A stretch of DNA of 35,665 nucleotides from Acutalibacteraceae bacterium (GTDB lineage Bacteria; Bacillota; Clostridia; Oscillospirales; Acutalibacteraceae): assembly GCA_045122755.1 (NCBI GenBank), contig JBGVHY010000091.1, forward strand, positions 1-35,665. The letters are read 5' to 3'. A program made the position numbers and the translations under genes. The notes under the pieces were generated by a model. It was not told the origin of the DNA, did not search any database, and was given only the letters and a program-made list of their open reading frames with translations. Below, piece after piece: positions 26 through 30,929 of the stretch; position 1 is the stretch's first letter; each line of letters begins with the position of its first letter.

Positions 26-1291
26 ATGATATTTGCAGAAATAAAAAACAAAACGGTTGATTTTGCAAAAAAACAATACGAGTTTTTTACAAAAGTATTA
101 TCTAAAAAAACAAAAGATAGAAGAAGCTTTAAAAAGACAGCGGTTATTTCATTAGCAATGGTAGCTGCCGTGTTATTGCCTATATTTCCGTTTTCAACAT
201 TGACTTTGGCTTACGAAGTCAAATATGACAACAACTCTATTGGATATGTATCTAATGAGAGCGAGTATAAAAAAGCTGAGAATATTGTAAGTGATAAGTT
301 GGTCGGAAGTATCGCACAGTCATTTGAGCTTACAGCGATTATTATTCCTTCAAAGTCACTTAATACAGTTAATGAGATTTCAAAAAGTCTTACGGATAAC
401 TTAGCTGAGAATGAGAATATTGTAAACGCTTACGGTATTTATGCAGGTAAAAAATGCATTGCCGCAAGTAATGATAAGTCATTGCTTCTTAATGCTATTG
501 AAAGCTACAAAAGTGAGGTAGAGGCAGAAACTCAGGCTGATATCGTTGTTTTTGATAAAAATGTTCAGGTTAAGGATTGCTTAAGTCTTACTGAAAATCT
601 TACTGGCCTTGATGAAACAGTCGATGTCATTGAGGAAAATGTAGATTGCAAGGTAGGCTATTACAAAACCACTACAAAAACCGTTAAATATAAGGTTGTA
701 AATAAAAAGGACAATACCTTGTACAAAGGTGTTACAAAAGTTAAATCGGGCGGTGTGAACGGTAAGCAGAAGGTGAAAACTGTTACTTTCTATAAAGACG
801 GTAAGAAGCTTTCAACCGAAACTGTTAAAAAAACAACCGTTAAAAAGGCAAAGACAAAGGTTGTGCTTGAGGGCACTAAGAAAAGACCTGAAACCGATAC
901 AAACGGCAAAAAACTTCTATGGCCGGTTGATAAGAGCGCTTCACAGTATGTAAGCAGCGGATTCGGTCAGCGCAGCGGCAGACTTCATAAGGGTATTGAT
1001 ATTATCGCTGATTACGGTACAAATATTCTTGCGGCAGCTGACGGCGTTGTAACACGCGCATCGTGGTTTGACTCTTACGGTTATTGTGTTGATATTAAAC
1101 ACGCTGACGGAACTCTGACCAGATATGCGCATTGCTCAAAAATGCTTGTAAATGTCGGCGATAAAGTGGTTATGGGGCAGACTATCGCAAAGGTAGGCTC
1201 GACAGGTCGTTCAACTGCTAACCATCTTCATTTTGAAGTAAGACCAAACGGCGGCGACCCGGTAAACCCAATGAAATACATTAAAAAATAG
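26..1291 (+). CDS. Membrane-anchored/secreted M23 (LytM-type) metallopeptidase with Lys-rich G5-like linker
   Basis: 421-aa ORF. N-terminal hydrophobic segment AVISLAMVAAVLLPIFPF. The central region KVKSGGVNGKQKVKTVTFYKDGKK looks G5-like. C-terminal M23 signatures are HKGIDI and GSTGRSTANHLHFEV. A strong terminator follows. Confidence 0.85.
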   Translation: MIFAEIKNKTVDFAKKQYEFFTKVLSKKTKDRRSFKKTAVISLAMVAAVLLPIFPFSTLTLAYEVKYDNNSIGYVSNESEYKKAENIVSDKLVGSIAQSFELTAIIIPSKSLNTVNEISKSLTDNLAENENIVNAYGIYAGKKCIAASNDKSLLLNAIESYKSEVEAETQADIVVFDKNVQVKDCLSLTENLTGLDETVDVIEENVDCKVGYYKTTTKTVKYKVVNKKDNTLYKGVTKVKSGGVNGKQKVKTVTFYKDGKKLSTETVKKTTVKKAKTKVVLEGTKKRPETDTNGKKLLWPVDKSASQYVSSGFGQRSGRLHKGIDIIADYGTNILAAADGVVTRASWFDSYGYCVDIKHADGTLTRYAHCSKMLVNVGDKVVMGQTIAKVGSTGRSTANHLHFEVRPNGGDPVNPMKYIKK

Positions 1292-1301
1292 ATTTGAATT
1301 T

Positions 1302-1339
1302 ATGCAACAACTTATTAGTTGTTGCATTTTTCTTTTTTT
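1302..1339 (+). terminator. Intrinsic terminator of the M23 peptidase gene
   Basis: Perfect 11-bp stem, atgcaacaact (1302-1312) with agttgttgcat (1317-1327), loop tatt. A T-rich run ttttcttttttt follows. Confidence 0.85.
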
Positions 1340-1350
1340 CGTGGTAAAAT
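1322..1350 (+). promoter_or_regulatory. Candidate sigma-A promoter (TTGCAT-17-TAAAAT with TGn extended -10)
   Basis: TTGCAT at 1322-1327, a 17-nt spacer, TAAAAT at 1345-1350, and TG at 1342-1343. The -35 lies in the 3' arm of the upstream terminator. Predicted TSS is near 1357. Confidence 0.55.
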
Positions 1351-1354
1351 AATC

Positions 1355-1503
1355 TTGCGACATAGTTTAATATTTTCCAAAATAGGCATCATTTTCAAGA
1401 AATGTATGCTTTGTTTTACATATCCGATTTTGGAATGAACTGTGTCGCAACAAAAAAGCTATACATTTTTTGAGTGCGTGGCTTTTGCTGCGCACTTTTT
1501 TTT
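1355..1503 (+). promoter_or_regulatory. Structured 5' leader with nested stems and an intrinsic terminator (riboswitch/attenuator-like, class unknown)
   Basis: P1 pairs 1355-1365 with 1440-1450 (11 bp, one G-U). P2 pairs 1375-1383 with 1427-1435 (9 bp, perfect). The terminator pairs 1473-1482 with 1487-1496 (10 bp, two G-U, loop tttt) and is followed by T7 at 1497-1503. An alternative pairing of 1442-1459 with 1481-1495 (about 14 bp) excludes both P1 and the terminator. RBS AAGGA at 1510-1514 and the ATG at 1521 follow directly. Confidence 0.5.
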
Positions 1504-1520
1504 ATTTTCAAGGATGTGAA

Positions 1521-1979
1521 ATGATGCCTGATAGAAACGTATATATAATGAATTTAAAAGATACTCGAAAAGAGTCTTTAAATAAAAATTCTTCTAAAAA
1601 GTTTGAAATATGCTATAAAGAAAGGTTTGTGGCAATCGGGTGGGGTACAGAATTTTCAAGAACTGAAGACAATTATAGGCGAGCATTAAAATGCATACAA
1701 GATATGAAAAAAGGAGATATTGTTTGGGTTAGAAATCCCAAAACCAAAGAGAGATATCTTTGCGAGATTTTAGGCAATTTTGAAGATTACGGCGAAAAGT
1801 TTATCGAATATGATATTTCACAGGGAATAAAGTGCAAGTTTTATAAGATAGAGTGTAAAATTGAAGACAAGATAAACCCGAAAAGATTGGTGTCCATTTC
1901 AACAGTGCGTGCAGTTAAACAGGAAGATGTGATAGAATTCACAAAAGAATTATTTGCTAATTCAAAAGAAACTAATTAG
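1521..1979 (+). CDS. Hypothetical small cytoplasmic protein (152 aa) with no family I can name
   Basis: The track ORF at 1470-1979 was trimmed to the ATG at 1521, because 1473-1503 is a terminator hairpin and AAGGA lies 6 nt upstream of 1521. There is no signal peptide. The motifs FVAIGWG and KKGDIVWV recall N-terminal reader-type modules of restriction-associated ATPases, from memory only. The stop is 20 nt before the LRR gene. Confidence 0.6.
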   Translation: MMPDRNVYIMNLKDTRKESLNKNSSKKFEICYKERFVAIGWGTEFSRTEDNYRRALKCIQDMKKGDIVWVRNPKTKERYLCEILGNFEDYGEKFIEYDISQGIKCKFYKIECKIEDKINPKRLVSISTVRAVKQEDVIEFTKELFANSKETN

Positions 1980-1999
1980 TTTATAAGGAGATATAAAAA

Positions 2000-4900
2000 A
2001 TGAAAAAAGTATTGTCTATTTTATTATCATTATTTATGGTAGTATCTATCGTTCCTATTGCTAACATCACCGTTAGCGCTGCCACAAGCGGATATTATAC
2101 ATATACCATATCAAACAGTGAAGCAACAATTACTGATTGCAGCACCTCAATCAGCGGCAATATCACAATCCCATCGTTCCTTGGTGGTTATTCTGTAACA
2201 AGTATTGGTAATAGGGCATTTTATTATTGCACATCATTAACAAGCATAATAATCCCAGATAGTGTAACAAGTATTGGTAATAGTGCATTTTATGATTGCA
2301 CATCATTGATGAGCATAACAATCACTGATAGTGTAACAAGCATTGGTGATTATGCATTTTCTAGTTGCGACTCATTAACAAGCATAACAATCCCGGATAG
2401 TGTAACAAGTATTGGTAGTTATGCATTTTATAATTGTACATCATTAACAAGCATAAATGTATCAGATAACAACACTTCGTATTGTGATATAGACGGAGTT
2501 TTATTTAATAAAGATAAAACTGAACTTGTAACATATCCCGCGGACAAAACTCAAACAATATATACAATCCCTGACAGTGTAACAAGTATTGGTGATGGTG
2601 CATTTGATTATTGCAAATCATTAACAAGCATATATGTATCAGATAACAACACTTCGTATTGTGATATAGACGGAGTTTTATTTAATAAAGATAAAACTGA
2701 ACTTGTAACATATCCCGCGGGCAAAACTCAAACAATATATACAATCCCAGATAGTGTAACAAGTATTGGTAATGATGCATTTTCTAGTTGCGACTCATTA
2801 ACAAGCGTGAGCATAGGAGATAGTGTAACAAGTATTGGTGATTGGGCATTTTATTATTGCAAATCATTAACAAGCATAACAATCCCGGATAGTGTAACAA
2901 GTATTGCTGATGGGGCATTTTATTGTTGCACATCATTAACAAGCATAACAATCCCGGATAGTGTAACAAGTATTGGTAATGGGGCATTTGAAGATTGCGA
3001 ATCATTAACAAGCGTGAGCATAGGAGATAGTGTAACAAGTATTGGTGATTGGGCATTTTATTTTTGCAAATCATTAACAAGCATAACAATCCCTGACAGT
3101 GTAACAAGTATTGGTGAAGAGGCATTTTATTATTGCGAATCATTAACAAGCGTGAGCATAGGAGATAGTGTAACAAGTATTGGTTATAGTGCATTTTCTT
3201 ATTGCAAATCATTAACAAGCGTGAGCATAGGAGATAGTGTAACAAGTATTGGTGATTATGCATTTTCTTATTGCTATTCATTAACAAGCATAACAATCCC
3301 GGATAGTGTAACAAGTATTGGTTATAGTGCATTTGAAGATTGCGCCAATGCAATTTTTTATTGTGCTTGTAATAATAGTTACGCAGAGAATTATTTAAAA
3401 GACGAAGGAAAAAACTATATAATTTCTCATAACTATTCAAATTTAAAATACAACACAACGGGACACTGGCATAAATGTTCTGATTGTGATTCTACAACAA
3501 CAGTAGAATCACACAGTGGCGGTACTGCAACTTGCACAAGCAAAGCAGTTTGTTCAACTTGTAAGCAAAGTTATGGTAGCGCGTTAGGTCATAACTACAA
3601 AGAAAAAGTACTAATTCCGTCCTCGTGCGAAGTAGTCGGAAAAAAACAATTCACTTGTTCAAAATGCAACGATACCTATGAAGAAGAAATTTCTGCTTTA
3701 GGTCACGACCGAGTTGTAGTTGAGCAAGCACCATCTACAATTTTGAGCGATGGTTATGAAGTTATTGAATGCCAAAATGACGGTTGCAATTATAGTGATA
3801 TTATTTATTATGACAGATTGACACTTGAATACAACAAAACTTATTACGAAAACGGAACAGACTATTACAAAATCGTTTTGGATAAATCAGGATTTTTAGT
3901 TTTCGATTTTGTTGGCGATAGCGAAAAATGGGCGATTAATATATATGATGAAGACGGTAAGAAAGTAGATACTTTAAAACCTGTGTATAAGTCATTTTTC
4001 AAAAAATCATATCTTCAAGCAGGTGTCAGTTCTTCTGTACCAAATGAAAATCAGATAACCGCTTTGTATGCAGGTGCTTATTACGTTGAAATCGAAAGAC
4101 AAGATGAAAATTATAATTTCACAGGCGATTATCAATTCTCAATAGGTTATTTTCCGTCAAGCGAAACTTTAGTTGAAACAAAGTATAATTTTTATTACGA
4201 TGCTCCAACTGCAAGAGAAATAACCCTTAATTCTACTTACAACGGATTTTTGGGCAGTAAATTTGCGGCTTATAATTATAGCGGTACTGAAATAGTTACA
4301 ACCGATTCAACCGACGCGTATATCATTGAAATTCCAAAGGGAAGCGGTTGGGCGCAATTAAGTATAACGTTATCTGCTAAATCGTTCCCTCCACTTAATT
4401 CAAGTTGCACTATTAGTATTTACAATGCCGACTTTGATTTGTGCGAAGATTTTACACCTATGACAGTTTCGTCGGACTCAACAAAGAATCAAATAACGTA
4501 TTTATACGAGGGTATTTATTATATTGCCGTTGACTCTAATCAGTCTATCGAATATAGTTTTAAAACGGAATACAAATCTACAGGAACTTTTGTATGCGTA
4601 ACTCATAAAGGAAAGTTGATTGAAACAAAAAATCCAACTTGCACAATCGACGGTTATCAACTTTATGATTGTAATATTTGTCAGACTAAATATAAGGTTG
4701 TAATTCCGGCTCAAGGGCATATTAATGTAATTGATTACGCAAAGCCTGCAACCTATTTGACTTCCGGTTTGACTCAAGGCGCACATTGTTCAGTTTGCGG
4801 TCAAGTTTTAGTTGCTCAAAAAGTAATTCCAAAACTTGTTAAAGTGACTGTTAAAACACCTACCGTTAAATACACAGGTGGTAAGAAAAAGATTACAATT

Positions 4901-5122
4901 AAACACACAAAAGTCACAGGTACTACAAGTTTTGAAGTTCAATACAAAAAAGGCAACGGAAAGTGGCAAAAAGCAACTTACGTTCTAAAGAAAAACGGTT
5001 CAAAGGTAATTAAAAAACTCAAAAAAGGTAATTACAAAATCCGCGTAAGAGCGTTTGTAAAACAAAACGGCAAAACCGTATATTCTAATTGGACAAAACT
5101 TAAAAAAGTTAAAGTAAAATAA
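2000..5122 (+). CDS. Large secreted BspA-type leucine-rich-repeat surface protein with Cys/His-rich modules, two PPC-like beta-sandwich domains and a C-terminal Fn3-like domain
   Basis: 1040-aa ORF with SD AAGGAG at 1985-1990. Signal peptide [27 protein letters not shown]. About 17 repeats of roughly 23 aa, consensus [23 protein letters not shown]. Cys-rich GH..C..C modules are present. PPC-like segments include [25 protein letters not shown] and [26 protein letters not shown]. The C-terminus is Lys-rich and Fn3-like. Confidence 0.85.
2192..3344 (+). repeat. In-frame tandem 69-bp (23-aa) LRR-coding repeats, including a near-identical 177-bp tandem duplication (about 2459-2635 and 2636-2812)
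   Basis: Recurring strings gatagtgtaacaagtattggt and tcattaacaagcataacaatccc. The stretch gtatcagataacaacacttcgtattgtgatatagacggagttttatttaataaagataaaactgaacttgtaacatatcccgcgg occurs at 2459 and again at 2636, an offset of 177 bp. Confidence 0.9.
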
Positions 5123-5128
5123 TTTTTA

Positions 5129-5161
5129 GGGGCGAGAGGACACCTCCCGCCCTTTGTTTTT
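5129..5161 (+). terminator. Intrinsic terminator of the LRR protein gene
   Basis: GC-rich stem gggcgagagg / cctcccgccc with one mismatch and loop aca, followed by tttgttttt. Confidence 0.8.
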
Positions 5162-5252
5162 CTAAAATCGCTACGAATACGGCGAGGCTTTCGGGTATAT
5201 CTTATTAAATATAACGGTATACAAATTAGATATTTTACATATCTAAAAAAGT

Positions 5253-5270
5253 TTGTTAAAATATTAACAG
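5253..5270 (+). promoter_or_regulatory. Candidate Rex operator (TTGTTAA-AATA-TTAACAG) upstream of adhE
   Basis: 18-bp near-palindrome that matches the Clostridial Rex consensus TTGTTAAnnnnTTAACAA at 17 of 18 positions. It lies 68 nt upstream of the adhE ATG. adhE is a classical Rex target. Confidence 0.6.
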
Positions 5271-5337
5271 ACTTGAAAATGAGTCAGAATATCAACCAGT
5301 TAATGCTTAAAAATTATTTATAAAAGGAGAAACAAAA

Positions 5338-8812: not shown

Positions 8813-9052
8813 ATGAAAATTACAGTATGTATAGGTAGTTCATGTCATTTAAAAGGTTCAAGACAGATTGTTGAAGAGTTACAGTATCTTATTAATCAGA
8901 ATAATTTAAAAGAAAAAGTAGAGCTTGCAGGTACTTTTTGTATGGGTAACTGCAAAAACGGCGTATGTGTAACTTTGGATGATAAAGAGTATTCTTTATC
9001 ACCTGAAACTACAAAAGATTTCTTTGAAAAAGAAGTATTGGCAAAGATTTAG
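8813..9052 (+). CDS. Thioredoxin-like [2Fe-2S] ferredoxin-domain protein (79 aa), copy 1
   Basis: Trimmed to the ATG at 8813, with GGAG at 8802-8805. The longer GTG start at 8744 lies inside the palindrome. Cys pattern CIGSSC...CMGNC (Cx4C...Cx3C). Confidence 0.75.
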   Translation: MKITVCIGSSCHLKGSRQIVEELQYLINQNNLKEKVELAGTFCMGNCKNGVCVTLDDKEYSLSPETTKDFFEKEVLAKI

Positions 9053-9063
9053 TTTAATATTTT

Positions 9064-9095
9064 AAAAAATCCGTGTGATTTACACGGATTTTTTA
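9064..9095 (+). terminator. Intrinsic terminator between the two ferredoxin paralogs
   Basis: 8-bp stem atccgtgt/acacggat with loop gattt. It is flanked by A5 upstream and T5 downstream. Confidence 0.75.
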
Positions 9096-13699: not shown

Positions 13700-13766
13700 A
13701 AGTTTAATTAATTGTATAAATAGATTAAATTTGCTTTTTTCATTTTATGTTTCTCTATATTATAAA

Positions 13767-13802
13767 AGAAGTACCGCAGTTTGTCTGCGGTACTTCTTTT
13801 TT
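13767..13802 (+). terminator. Intrinsic terminator of hydA (repeat copy 1)
   Basis: Perfect 13-bp stem agaagtaccgcag/ctgcggtacttct with loop tttgt, followed by T-run tttttt. Confidence 0.9.
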
Positions 13803-13816
13803 GTATAATTTTAAAA

Positions 13817-13871: not shown

Positions 13872-14114
13872 ATGACAATTAATACAAAAAATCTGGTTTC
13901 TATTACAGAAGCAAATCAGAACTTTTCAAAAGTAGCGAGAATGGTGGACGAAAATGGAGCGGCTGTTATTTTGAAAAACAATGTGCCTCGTTATCTTATA
14001 ATTGAATTTGAACAAGCCGAAAAAGAGCAGACTGCTTTAAACGAAGATGTTATGACAATTTCAAAAAGGCTCATTGAAAAAAACAAAGAGGCATATGAGG
14101 TATTATCTAAATGA
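13872..14114 (+). CDS. phd: Phd/YefM-family type II antitoxin
   Basis: 80 aa. The N-terminus LVSITEANQNFSKVARMVDENGAAVILKNNVPRYLIIEF is typical of Phd/YefM. A 4-nt ATGA overlap joins it to the downstream Doc gene. SD AGGAGG is upstream. Confidence 0.85.
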   Translation: MTINTKNLVSITEANQNFSKVARMVDENGAAVILKNNVPRYLIIEFEQAEKEQTALNEDVMTISKRLIEKNKEAYEVLSK

Positions 14115-14488
14115 AAATACTGACAAAAGAGCAGATTTTGTTCCTTCATAGCGAGCTCGTTAAACACACAGGCGGACAGGATGGGTTGCGCGATGAAGCT
14201 CTGCTTGACTCAGCTATAAGTGCACCGTTTCAATCGTTTGACGGAATTGATACGTTTCCGTCAATACAACAAAAAGCAGCAAGATTGGGTTACGGTCTGA
14301 TAAAGAATCACGCTTTTATTGATGGTAACAAGAGAATAGGTGCTCATAGTATGCTTGTGTTTTTGAGTTTGAACGGCATTGAGCTTGAATATACGCAGGT
14401 AGAGTTATATACAATTATACTTGATATTGCATCAGGAAAAAAGAATTTTGAAGATTTGTTAAAATGGATAATTGAACATCAGATATAA
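14111..14488 (+). CDS. doc: Doc (death-on-curing) Fic-fold toxin
   Basis: 125 aa. Fic/Doc active-site motif HAFIDGNKRIG. It is translationally coupled to phd. Confidence 0.9.
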   Translation: MKILTKEQILFLHSELVKHTGGQDGLRDEALLDSAISAPFQSFDGIDTFPSIQQKAARLGYGLIKNHAFIDGNKRIGAHSMLVFLSLNGIELEYTQVELYTIILDIASGKKNFEDLLKWIIEHQI

Positions 14489-14489
14489 G

Positions 14490-14524
14490 AGAAGTACCGC
14501 AGTTTGTCTGCGGTACTTCTTTTT
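14490..14524 (+). terminator. Intrinsic terminator after doc (repeat copy 2, identical to 13767-13801)
   Basis: agaagtaccgcagtttgtctgcggtacttcttttt is identical over 35 nt to the hydA terminator 723 bp upstream. It starts 1 nt after the doc stop codon. Confidence 0.9.
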
Positions 14525-14652
14525 GTAATACTTTTTATGATGTTTGATATGATTTTAAAATAGTTTATTTGAAAAATGACATATTTCAAGCTTATTTTAG
14601 ATAAAAATCATTAGTTTTTATACAACTTGCATAAAATATTTATTGAAATTTC

Positions 14653-14735: not shown

Positions 14736-15051
14736 GCGCGAGATATGCGCATACATGCGTTGAAGCAGGAGGTGGCCGCTCTTTGAAGCGGGAAATTTCT
14801 GCCGAGTATGTCCGATTTTAAACCGGGCGAAATTATACTGTTTAAAAGTATTTTCCTTATGTCTTAATACAAGGCAATCGGGCTTTGTTAATGGGGCGTA
14901 AAGGAACTTTAGCCGGACCCGGGAACTGCACGAGGTGTGCTGATTTCCGGTTTTATGTTGGAAAAACGTGAAACACCCGGCTGAGGGTTAACGACAAAAA
15001 CAGTATGTCACTGCCCGCCGCCAGTAAATTTTTATAGGAGGCGTTAAAGCT
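14736..15051 (+). promoter_or_regulatory. Long (about 315 nt) structured 5' leader of rpsJ with a terminator-like hairpin
   Basis: The segment has no ORF and is visibly more G+C-rich than the AT-rich spacer upstream. The hairpin's outer stem pairs 14919-14925 with 14944-14950 (7 bp, one G-U). The inner stem pairs 14928-14931 with 14937-14940. It is followed by tttta at 14951-14955. SD AGGAGG is at 15036-15041. Confidence 0.45.
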
Positions 15052-30355: not shown

Positions 30356-30871
30356 TCAATGCACCGAGATATCAGCTGTATCGATTATAGTAATTTGAAT
30401 TTCATGTTTCTTTGAGAATTTAATACTTTCAATATTTGCATCTGATGCGTTATTCCAAAAAGCAATTGCGTAATCCGCACTTTTAAGCATATAGTAGCTA
30501 AGTTTTAGTATACATTTTTTTGTATAATGCTTTTGAATAAGTGTTTCTTTATCACACGCAGCTGCAATATTAAAGTATTGTTCTCTGTTTGCTTCAGACC
30601 AGTAGGCAGCCTGATTTTCAAAGGGGATTGCACATTCCAACGTTATTTGCGGATATTTCTTTTTTAAATCGAGTACAATTTGTGCAGCAAGTATATCTGT
30701 GCCGATTGACATACCGCTGATGAAATGAGTGACATTGTTTTTTACTATTTTGTTTTCTATTTCTTTTTGTAAAGTTTTTTTCAGATTAATACATTTTTCG
30801 TCCTGTTCATTGAAAAAACGGACTGTTTTCTGATTAAAATCGAAAAAACAACAAGTTTTTCCCTCTTTCAT
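30356..30871 (-). CDS. SLOG-superfamily protein, YpsA/DUF1273-like
   Basis: 171 aa. ISGMSIGTDILAAQIVLDLKKKYPQITLECAIPFENQAAYWSEANREQY aligns by eye with B. subtilis YpsA [48 protein letters not shown], recalled from memory. Confidence 0.75.
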   Translation of the reverse strand: MKEGKTCCFFDFNQKTVRFFNEQDEKCINLKKTLQKEIENKIVKNNVTHFISGMSIGTDILAAQIVLDLKKKYPQITLECAIPFENQAAYWSEANREQYFNIAAACDKETLIQKHYTKKCILKLSYYMLKSADYAIAFWNNASDANIESIKFSKKHEIQITIIDTADISVH

Positions 30872-30884
30872 TTTTATACCTCGT

Positions 30885-30929
30885 TTATTATGTATTTACG
30901 ATTGAGATTAAATCGTAAATACATAATAA
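30885..30929. promoter_or_regulatory. Perfect 19-bp inverted repeat (7-nt spacer) immediately upstream of the SLOG gene
   Basis: ttattatgtatttacgatt (30885-30903), spacer gagatta, aatcgtaaatacataataa (30911-30929). It sits 14 nt upstream of the minus-strand start codon at 30871. Confidence 0.7.

Follow-up and report, generated by a model that had tools for sequence, protein, structure and literature searches.

What does a strongly folded leader of about 150 nucleotides (nt) do between a promoter and the genes that follow it, and does it belong to a known class of regulatory RNA? The question is raised by a locus on contig JBGVHY010000091.1 of an Acutalibacteraceae bacterium (assembly GCA_045122755.1), of which we analyzed positions 1 to 35,665, a stretch of 35,665 nt referred to as the window. 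Here the gene of an M23/G5 peptidase is followed by the leader, then by genes for a 152-amino acid (aa) protein predicted to be EVE-like and for a leucine-rich repeat (LRR) surface protein. A first-pass annotation had proposed a riboswitch-like leader that controls these two genes by switching between P1, antiterminator and terminator pairings. We conclude from folding and comparison that positions 1354-1503 of the + strand are an intact member of a widespread family of structured leader RNAs that is absent from Rfam, and we propose, with a probability of roughly two in three (0.68), that the leader acts in cis as a transcription attenuator, with a linker hairpin as antiterminator, gating the EVE-like and LRR genes. 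The first-pass interpretation is partly supported, being right in kind (a structured leader, control at a terminator, no known class) and wrong in its details.

The leader RNA and its family

The segment 1352-1510 folds at -55 kcal/mol on the + strand (z = -8.4, with none of 200 shuffled sequences as good) and at -37 kcal/mol on the - strand (z = -3.7), and four G-U pairs in helices P1-P3 can form only on the + strand; the asymmetry of the folds fits a function at the RNA level. Transcribed from about 1356, the + strand is predicted to form a long irregular hairpin (1355-1450), a weak A6/U6 hairpin and an 11-bp terminator with a U8 tract, and all coordinates given below are on this strand unless noted. 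The long hairpin begins with P1, whose 5' arm (UUGCGACAUAGUUUA, 1355-1369) and 3' arm (UGAACUGUGUCGCAA, 1436-1450) form 15 bp in RNAfold, two of them G-U; P1 had been annotated as 1355-1365/1440-1450, and is longer than was claimed. P1 is followed by the 5' bulge J12 (AUAUU, 1370-1374; family consensus AUAUaUUU, from a structural parse of 27 representatives) and by P2, nine perfect pairs between UUCCAAAAU (1375-1383) and AUUUUGGAA (1427-1435), exactly as first annotated. The 43-nt apical region that P2 encloses is not unstructured; it holds a 12-bp hairpin, P3 (1384-1411), with its 5' strand at 1384-1395 (segment a), the loop CAA at 1396-1398 and its 3' strand at 1399-1411 (segment b), together with the 15-nt 3' internal loop J32 (UGUUUUACAUAUCCG, 1412-1426; family consensus UCUCUUUACUcAUg).

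Beyond P1 lie a linker (1451-1471, segment a') and an intrinsic terminator (1472-1503) composed of a 5' arm (1472-1482, segment b'), a loop (1483-1486), a 3' arm (1487-1497, segment c) and a U-tract (1496-1503). The stem 1472-1497 has pair probabilities of 0.995-1.0 and a stability of -14.3 kcal/mol in addition to its run of eight U (T8 in the DNA), and it precedes the ribosome-binding site (RBS; AGGA, 1511-1514) and the ATG at 1521, 18 nt past the U-tract. The strong terminator ahead of RBS and start codon was called correctly in the first pass, and fold and family together bear out a structured + strand leader running from a promoter to a terminator just 5' of the RBS.

The promoter itself was recognized only in part. 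An extended -10 element, TGgTAAAAT (1342-1350), can be read in the sequence and recurs across the family as TGnTAnnnT at a fixed distance of 5-6 nt 5' of P1 (UGCGACA); the element of the window keeps this distance, one of the features by which membership in the family was judged, and transcription would start at about 1356-1357, in the first pairs of P1. The near-consensus -35 hexamer assigned to it, TTGCAT (1322-1327), does not stand. It was not among the sites listed by a consensus promoter scan of the window, because only three of its six positions agree with TTGACA, and it is the 3' arm of another hairpin, that of the intrinsic terminator (1302-1340; hairpin 1302-1327 and a T-rich run, from a terminator scan and the sequence) of the upstream M23/G5 peptidase gene (26-1291). 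An identical copy of this terminator is present in a related locus, L031, where the DNA further downstream differs.

Relatives of the leader were recovered in several ways. A blastn search of 1340-1520 against GenBank phages matched MT835845 (L063), which has the same layout ahead of a lipoprotein gene and two compensatory changes in P1 relative to the window; L064 was recovered by a terminator pattern, L065 by blastn, and L069 by a pattern of the P1 3' arm and terminator. A pattern of both P1 arms matched 81 IMG/VR viral contigs, against a chance expectation of ~14 estimated by hand, and three of the 81 proved to be chance matches. A pattern independent of P1 returned 27 known members, one with a single uncompensated change in P1, and one truncated copy, all closely related to each other. 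The terminator 16-mer TTTTTCGGTGCGTGGC was rejected as a family marker in viral contigs since 15 of its 17 matches were chance occurrences inside genes, and a supposed second leader copy in the window (9050-9084, repeat D14) proved on reading the sequence to be an AT-rich chance similarity. Main-family members had no blastn match among GenBank phages or PLSDB plasmids.

A covariance model (R1) was built from an alignment (A3) of 24 non-redundant members from which the window was excluded. It matches the window at 1354-1501(+) with 92.1 bits (E 2.4e-21) over model positions 1-160 of 160; the runner-up within the window, at 20.7 bits, is this same locus read on the reverse strand, and there is no other strong match. 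In all, the model matches the + strand exactly once in each of 81 sources, these being the window and 80 loci. Besides the copy in the window, at least 78 lie in IMG/VR phage contigs and two in GenBank 'Bacteriophage sp.' scaffolds; these copies, at least 80, come from one narrow search pattern. The phages, integrative elements and genomic islands that bear the family were sampled largely from human gut and faecal material, and their gene content suggests Clostridia as hosts.

No Rfam family accounts for this RNA. In Rfam 15 the region 1200-1650 of the window reaches a best score of 23 bits against a threshold of 141 and matches no family at gathering score, in agreement with the statement of the first-pass annotation, which had called for such a search, that the leader is of no recognizable riboswitch class (purine, preQ1, c-di-GMP, ZTP, guanidine, fluoride and T-box were named). 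Rfam matched tRNA alone in eleven family loci and relaxed thresholds added nothing, and strings of the family sequence gave nothing relevant in literature text and catalogue supplements.

The window parses like 26 other representatives, with a P1 of 15 bp, J12 as AUAUU, a P2 of 9 bp, a P3 of 12 bp and a J32 of 15 nt. Across the family, P1 has 13-16 bp with the core UGCGACAC/GUGUCGCA (UGCGACA...UGUCGCA), P2 has 9-17 bp that vary in sequence between members yet remain complementary, P3 is a hairpin with GCAA/GUAA, UACG or other loops, J32 has 14-16 nt, the linker starts after the 'CAA' that follows P1, and the terminator is a hairpin followed by U5-8. On the model alignment 94.9% of cells are paired, compared with 32-55% when partners are slid, and 16 pairs are double-changed, compared with 7.8 +/- 1.5 in shuffles. 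Four inner P1 pairs show double changes across the family, the pairs of P3 (helix 2) covary too, and the terminator, 97% of whose cells are paired, has 10 compensatory cells. Among the members recovered, the outer 9 bp of P1 do not vary. RNAalifold on MAFFT alignments recovers P1 and the terminator only, and P2 and P3 were instead parsed sequence by sequence. Because P2 cannot be aligned by sequence it was tested by swapping arms: cognate arms pair at -17.1 kcal/mol and non-cognate arms at -4.7 kcal/mol, and the cognate 3' arm ranks first of 27 in 23 of the 27 members. The comparative test proposed with the first-pass annotation thus comes out in its favor, with relatives in phage contigs and two GenBank scaffolds keeping P1, P2, P3 and the terminator through compensatory changes.

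Terminator and antiterminator

A mutually exclusive antiterminator/terminator pair is present in the leader, although with strands other than those first proposed. The linker is predicted to form a hairpin with the terminator 5' arm in all 27 representatives, at -7 to -22 kcal/mol and with 62-100% of the arm engaged, including L097 and L141, whose sequence is wholly different (GGAAGG/CCUUCC); in L072, L098 and L119 the minimum-free-energy structure of the full-length RNA contains this hairpin. In the alignment A3 its cells are 82% paired (40-66% with slid partners), and its covariation is modest. In the window, 1454-1468 pairs with 1472-1486, and before the terminator is completed the fold, at -10.8 kcal/mol, has 89% of the terminator 5' arm in pairs.

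The first-pass annotation had instead placed the antiterminator at 1442-1459/1481-1495, using the P1 3' arm, so that opening of P1 would favor read-through. That pairing occurs as an isolated duplex only (-12.3 kcal/mol) and needs P1 to be melted, and the terminator stays in the minimum-free-energy fold when the 5' arms of P1 and P2 are blocked; the conserved competitor of the terminator is the linker hairpin on its 5' arm rather than the P1 3' arm.

A third segment may enter this competition. Because the linker resembles the P3 5' strand in each lineage, 13-19 bp can form between it and the P3 3' strand with the start of J32. In the window, 1456-1469 is complementary to 1399-1411 (13 bp with one bulge). 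Cognate pairing of the linker with P3 3' strand and J32 has a mean of -14.1 kcal/mol, compared with -5.8 +/- 2.7 for shuffled linkers, and the matrix of linker/P3-3'-strand energies falls into blocks by subfamily. The competing duplexes in the window have energies of -12.6 kcal/mol for the antiterminator, -11.8 for the linker with the P3 3' strand and -9.3 for P3, and for the RNA as a whole the state with the terminator formed lies at -55.0 kcal/mol and that with the antiterminator at -46.6 kcal/mol. A pseudoknot of J32 with the linker alone had shown moderate discrimination and was replaced by this longer pairing. Two other ideas were dropped: a leader peptide, since the AUG of the linker is absent from the window, L063, L065 and L069, and a CsrA site, since GGA motifs are absent from the window and several subfamilies.

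Genomic setting

Throughout the family a same-strand gene with an RBS follows the U-tract at a median distance of 30 nt, and within 50 nt in 66 of 74 cases; with the gene so close there is no room for a separate promoter. The first genes behind the RNA encode a 173-aa family with a C-terminal membrane segment, membrane-anchored PASTA-domain proteins, a 345-aa family, lipoproteins including DUF6591, a zinc-ribbon membrane protein, small membrane proteins and, in the window, the EVE-like protein. No phage genes are nearby in the window and L063, and L064 and L065 are small integrase-bearing elements. That the RNA is kept before unrelated genes outside phages (the window, L063), with the gene close behind, supports action in cis.

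In the phage loci the RNA sits at a module boundary, with early-type genes 5' and a variable gene 3', followed by a ~900-aa protein of phrog_4291 and, further on, by the terminase large subunit (L113, L086). A terminator comes after the first gene in 8 of 55 phage loci, and in phages the element may gate a long operon and not one cargo gene. A gene of phrog_34912 (60-73 aa; L086 7345-7527) ends 53-94 nt 5' of the RNA in ~27 loci counted by eye, or in 12 of 81 loci by a stricter motif search; the protein, which ends in ...LVYFxDGxxMVYDYMEQRGxLITA, is a candidate partner of the RNA. The phrog_4291 protein (L086 9916-12618; L113 6021-8711, - strand) is annotated as 'RNA-dependent RNA polymerase' or as a helix-turn-helix DNA-binding protein, and its C-terminus resembles sigma-70 region 4; its relatives show ~51% identity in Arthrobacter phages and <60% in Gordonia, Streptomyces, Lactococcus and Faecalibacterium phages. 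In L076, where the RNA is on the - strand, a non-coding stretch lies ~400 nt 5' of it, directly 5' of its promoter, with repeated AAAGTGGGC/GCCCACTTT motifs in both orientations that look iteron- or operator-like; a stretch of the same type occurs in ~20 loci, the commonest phage type.

The unit behind the leader in the window begins with the 152-aa gene (1521-1979) and continues with the gene (2000-5122) of a 1040-aa secreted BspA-type protein (Pfam LRR_5, E 1.8e-111). It is closed by a terminator-like hairpin, GGGCGAGAGG/CCTCCCGCCC with one mismatch, followed by TTTGTTTTT (5130-5161), which was read from the sequence and is not listed by the terminator scan. The 152-aa protein had been described as an orphan. 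A word-indexed homology search found only the protein itself, which was misleading, as HMMER finds 94 relatives, which either stand alone at 140-175 aa or form the N-terminal domain of larger proteins (~260-650 aa); it also matches the N-terminal half of the PADLOC defence candidate PDC-S02 (E 3.7e-13), and Pfam gives no sequence-level match. AlphaFold2 models it with a mean confidence (pLDDT) of 93 from alignment A1, compared with 41 from the single sequence, and the best Foldseek matches of the model are VcaM4I (E 4e-4, TM-score 0.52-0.58), the MRB1 YTH domain and Atu2648. The model suggests a protein of an EVE/YTH-like family with a PUA fold.

Stand-alone homologues of the 152-aa gene are found directly 5' of other large surface-protein genes, with LRR_5 (L061) or MBG/fn3 domains (L054). 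In the metagenome and viral scans and among closer homologues, the upstream regions of these genes hold short 5' untranslated regions and no comparable leader, and the leader is therefore not a feature of the 152-aa gene family. The tie drawn in the first-pass annotation between the leader and the 152-aa/LRR gene pair thus does not hold, the homologous pairs being without a leader and the RNA preceding many unrelated genes. The EVE-like and surface-protein genes overlap or adjoin (window 1521-1979 and 2000-5122; L061 3001-5954; L054 157-1951), and the pairing of a putative reader of modified bases with adhesin-like genes is unexplained. The perfect palindromes TTGCAACAGAATACGGATTCTGTTGCAA and CATGTTTTGCATGCAAAACATG, just 5' of distant homologues of the 152-aa gene in L034/L035 (~60 nt away) and in L061 (2945-2966), may be operators and are unrelated to the leader family.

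The DNA that follows the M23 gene differs between relatives. In L033 the M23 gene leads straight into adhE, and the adhE promoter region is conserved with window 5215-5337, the common part beginning at ~5215. In L032 it is followed by the bacterial small signal recognition particle (SRP) RNA (2794-2892, 73 bits) and dnaX, and the orthologue in L029 has 99% protein identity yet a different terminator and different downstream DNA. L031 is 72% identical overall and has the last codons, the terminator and TGGTAAAAT as in the window, and then a signal-peptide gene with a short 5' untranslated region; its -10 element is also that of the window, yet neither the leader nor the 152-aa gene is present. 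From the three differing continuations and the L031 junction it follows that 1292-5214, with promoter, leader, 152-aa gene, LRR gene and terminator-like hairpin, is by this comparison an inserted unit. The order M23-SRP RNA-dnaX of L032, which the window lacks, is the one classically seen in Firmicutes, and the M23 gene has a recombination joint at its 3' end (window 1270-1351; L029 1560-1786; L031 1420-1500; L033 7267-7631). The M23 peptidase, used as a query against genomes, matched nothing but distant M23 domains in unrelated phyla, and exact-protein look-ups of the M23 and AdhE proteins of the window found no record.

Elsewhere in the window, the sole Rfam 15 match at gathering level is an S10-Clostridia ribosomal leader (14752-14830). 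Just 5' of it is a 52-nt direct repeat, 90% identical (13761-13812 and 14484-14535), which flanks an open reading frame (ORF; 14111-14488) and has in each copy a terminator-like hairpin, GAAGTACCGCAG...CTGCGGTACTTC, with a T-run. At 30885-30929, TTATTATGTATTTACGATT and AATCGTAAATACATAATAA form a perfect inverted repeat of 19 nt around a 7-nt spacer, between convergent or divergent ORFs near 30871 and 31051.

Mechanism, alternatives and known systems

In the mechanism that we propose, transcription would begin at the base of P1, from a host-type extended -10 promoter. The polymerase would read through if the linker paired with the terminator 5' arm, and an RNA of ~150 nt would be released if that arm paired instead with the terminator 3' arm; pairing of the linker with the P3 3' strand and J32 would free the terminator 5' arm for termination. 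In terms of the five segments a, b, a', b' and c, the combination a:b and a':b' would give read-through and b:a' and b':c termination. The pairing b:a' could form in cis, as a pseudoknot with a fold-back at J12, or in trans, or else the duplication of P3 in the antiterminator may provide two sites for one factor. The attenuator would set the share of polymerases starting at 1357 that reach the EVE-like and LRR surface-protein genes. Candidate triggers are a small molecule, an RNA-binding protein of the phage or the host, and the released leader in trans. The default state in the window would be off or low because the terminated state is favored by ~8 kcal/mol.

Several points weigh against this proposal. 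The start site, the terminated product and the read-through are all things that we infer, and thermodynamics alone, before any factor is invoked, puts the terminator of the window 8.4 kcal/mol ahead. Since P1 and P2 enclose P3 in a stable duplex of ~24-30 bp, a linker that paired with the P3 3' strand in cis would make a sterically difficult pseudoknot, and its support is at the level of subfamilies only. The invariance of outer P1 is partly an artefact of the search pattern, the members found without the two-arm P1 pattern being only L063, L064 and L065, with blastn matches that spanned part of P1, and the further members all come from one viral-contig collection. No metabolic theme connects the downstream genes, an unusual situation for metabolite riboswitches, and 47 of the 55 first genes in phage loci have no terminator behind them.

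Those unterminated first genes, and the long operon that they imply, fit a gate opened by a phage factor in the style of lambda N/nut or of Q at PR'-tR', where a short terminated RNA is made constitutively until the factor acts. A phage protein on the P3-type hairpin, which is present twice, or Nus factors on a boxA-like J32 would stabilize the antiterminator or modify the polymerase, and the copy in the window would be an orphan gate that stays silent in the absence of a resident phage to provide the factor. This possibility, which we hold tentatively and consider somewhat unlikely, overlaps with the attenuator, being the same device with a protein as its trigger. The RNA lies on the same strand as, and 5' of, the variable gene, the phrog_4291 gene and the terminase large subunit gene in L113 and L086, the phrog_34912 gene is close upstream in the ~27 loci counted by eye (12 of 81 by the stricter motif), and the antiterminator hairpin duplicates P3 in every lineage. 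J32 comes after a GNRA-capped hairpin and has a core, CUCUUUAC (GCUCU in L063-L100, UGCUUUGUUUUAC in the window), that may resemble boxA, the likeness being that of a 7-nt pyrimidine-rich motif. The phrog_34912 gene, moreover, is absent beside the window, L063, L064, L065, L069, L100 and the L076 type; the P3 loops vary by subfamily (CAA, UACG, GCAA/GUAA), and a protein would have to co-vary with them; and no N-, Q- or LoaP-like protein was identified. The occurrence of the element without a constant neighboring protein gene, and outside phages, would fit a riboswitch for a metabolite or second messenger, in which J12, J32 and P3 would be a ligand pocket that fixes or releases the P3 3' strand and J32, and by which prophages and islands would tune accessory surface and defence genes to host physiology. 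The conserved unpaired J12 and J32, framed by strongly covarying helices, the conserved terminator/antiterminator expression platform and the lack of a match to any known class are all in keeping with this. We nevertheless think it unlikely, for the regulated genes give no hint of a ligand, a P1 of 13-16 bp is very stable and atypical of a ligand-gated helix, and the aptamer-like part is mostly regular duplex, with ligand binding itself hypothetical. In its specific form, a new phage-borne riboswitch class whose P1-P2-P3 with J12/J32 would bind a small molecule or nucleotide messenger and flip the strand exchange between P3, linker and terminator, the idea is a little more doubtful still; were it true, phages, elements and islands of gut Clostridia would switch accessory surface, exclusion or defence genes by host physiology, and in phages perhaps the whole operon toward the packaging genes would be under such control.

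The steric problem of the cis pseudoknot would be escaped if the pairing took place in trans, the released ~150-nt RNA being itself the product, a regulatory or immunity RNA in the manner of P4 CI or P1 c4. Its exposed J32/P3 3' strand would pair with linkers as they are transcribed, whether from its own locus or from that of a superinfecting relative, and so block the antiterminator and enforce termination, with the subfamilies as immunity types. The complementarity of linker to P3 3' strand and J32 does co-vary by subfamily, and the strong promoter, the 5' end inside P1 and the efficient terminator, all predicted, would suit a stable and abundant small RNA. However, the loci fetched hold a single copy each and no second target site, the chromosomal copies of the window and L063 have no phage genes by them, and the Rfam C4 family does not match; the idea is wholly inferential and we consider it improbable. 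It is highly improbable that the locus is a DNA-level element (a miniature inverted repeat, invertible switch or recombination site) or a chance palindrome without any role as RNA. The long inverted repeat 1355-1450 does lie at the joint of a variable island, and outer P1 is constant in sequence among the members recovered. Against this, each locus has a single copy, with no further one in the 35.7 kb window, P2 and P3 change in sequence yet keep their pairing, including G-U pairs possible on the + strand only, the + strand folds far better than the - strand, and the position is fixed relative to promoter, terminator and downstream RBS. The 66-bp interval between the repeats is also too short for the known invertible switches.

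If the attenuator reading holds, the leader is a common, uncatalogued control element of phages and islands, largely of the human gut, placed before variable cargo genes (membrane, lipoprotein, PASTA-domain, LRR surface and EVE-like) and in phages also 5' of the block toward the packaging genes. It would then offer a handle on when Firmicute prophages express their accessory, and possibly late, genes; we know of no counterpart of N, Q or put defined in Firmicutes. For the window it predicts an EVE-like/LRR operon that is off or low by default and conditionally opened, and the five segments with their internal mimicry provide an unusually clear platform for experiments.

The family may be among the unnamed candidates of two surveys of human-gut and IMG/VR phage sequence (PMC8040213, Fremin and Bhatt 2021; PMC10690425, Fremin et al. 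2023), which report many candidate RNAs that lie 5' of genes or contain intrinsic terminators; its sequence has no match in 200 supplementary files of PMC8040213, and no such motif is named in the main text of PMC10690425. Among known systems, the type III toxin-antitoxin modules and the abiF motif RNA (RCd22; bioRxiv 10.1101/2025.04.15.648962) have a similar order of promoter, structured noncoding RNA, terminator and gene in Clostridia prophages, with the terminator setting the ratio of RNA to message. Those RNAs bind one toxin family, whereas here there is a single RNA unit per locus and the downstream proteins, of many families, are unrelated to each other; the abiF and ToxI models of Rfam match neither the window nor the family loci, and no tandem repeats were seen in the family alignments, which were not the subject of a dedicated tandem-repeat search. 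The P4 CI and P1/P7 c4 immunity RNAs are likewise small phage RNAs from the 5' part of an operon, in which duplicated complementary segments lead to premature termination, but they show no similarity in sequence or to the C4 model, and the RNA described here has a terminator of its own in place of processing.

The lambdoid gates (PR'-6S RNA-tR' with Q, N with nut boxA/boxB, and HK022 put) share with this family a short terminated transcript, here a predicted one, from a constitutive promoter at a module boundary 5' of the packaging genes, a structured RNA right after the promoter, and a hairpin followed by a CUCUUUA-like motif that may be likened to boxA. A local antiterminator hairpin is not required in those systems, which act by processive modification of the polymerase, but is kept in 27 of 27 representatives of this family, whose hosts are apparently Firmicutes. 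A further resemblance is to leaders with terminator and antiterminator (riboswitch platforms, T-box, trp and pyr-type attenuators), which also have a promoter-proximal structured leader with a terminator just before the RBS, an alternative hairpin on the terminator 5' arm and a third segment able to sequester the antiterminator strand. The family departs from them in having no Rfam match, no leader peptide and no tRNA-binding features, in a sensor that is one long near-continuous hairpin with two asymmetric loops, in an antiterminator that duplicates the internal hairpin P3, and in its association with phage accessory genes of no common pathway. What it has in common with them are the marks of an attenuator: a terminator between the promoter and the first gene, and a conserved alternative helix that excludes it.

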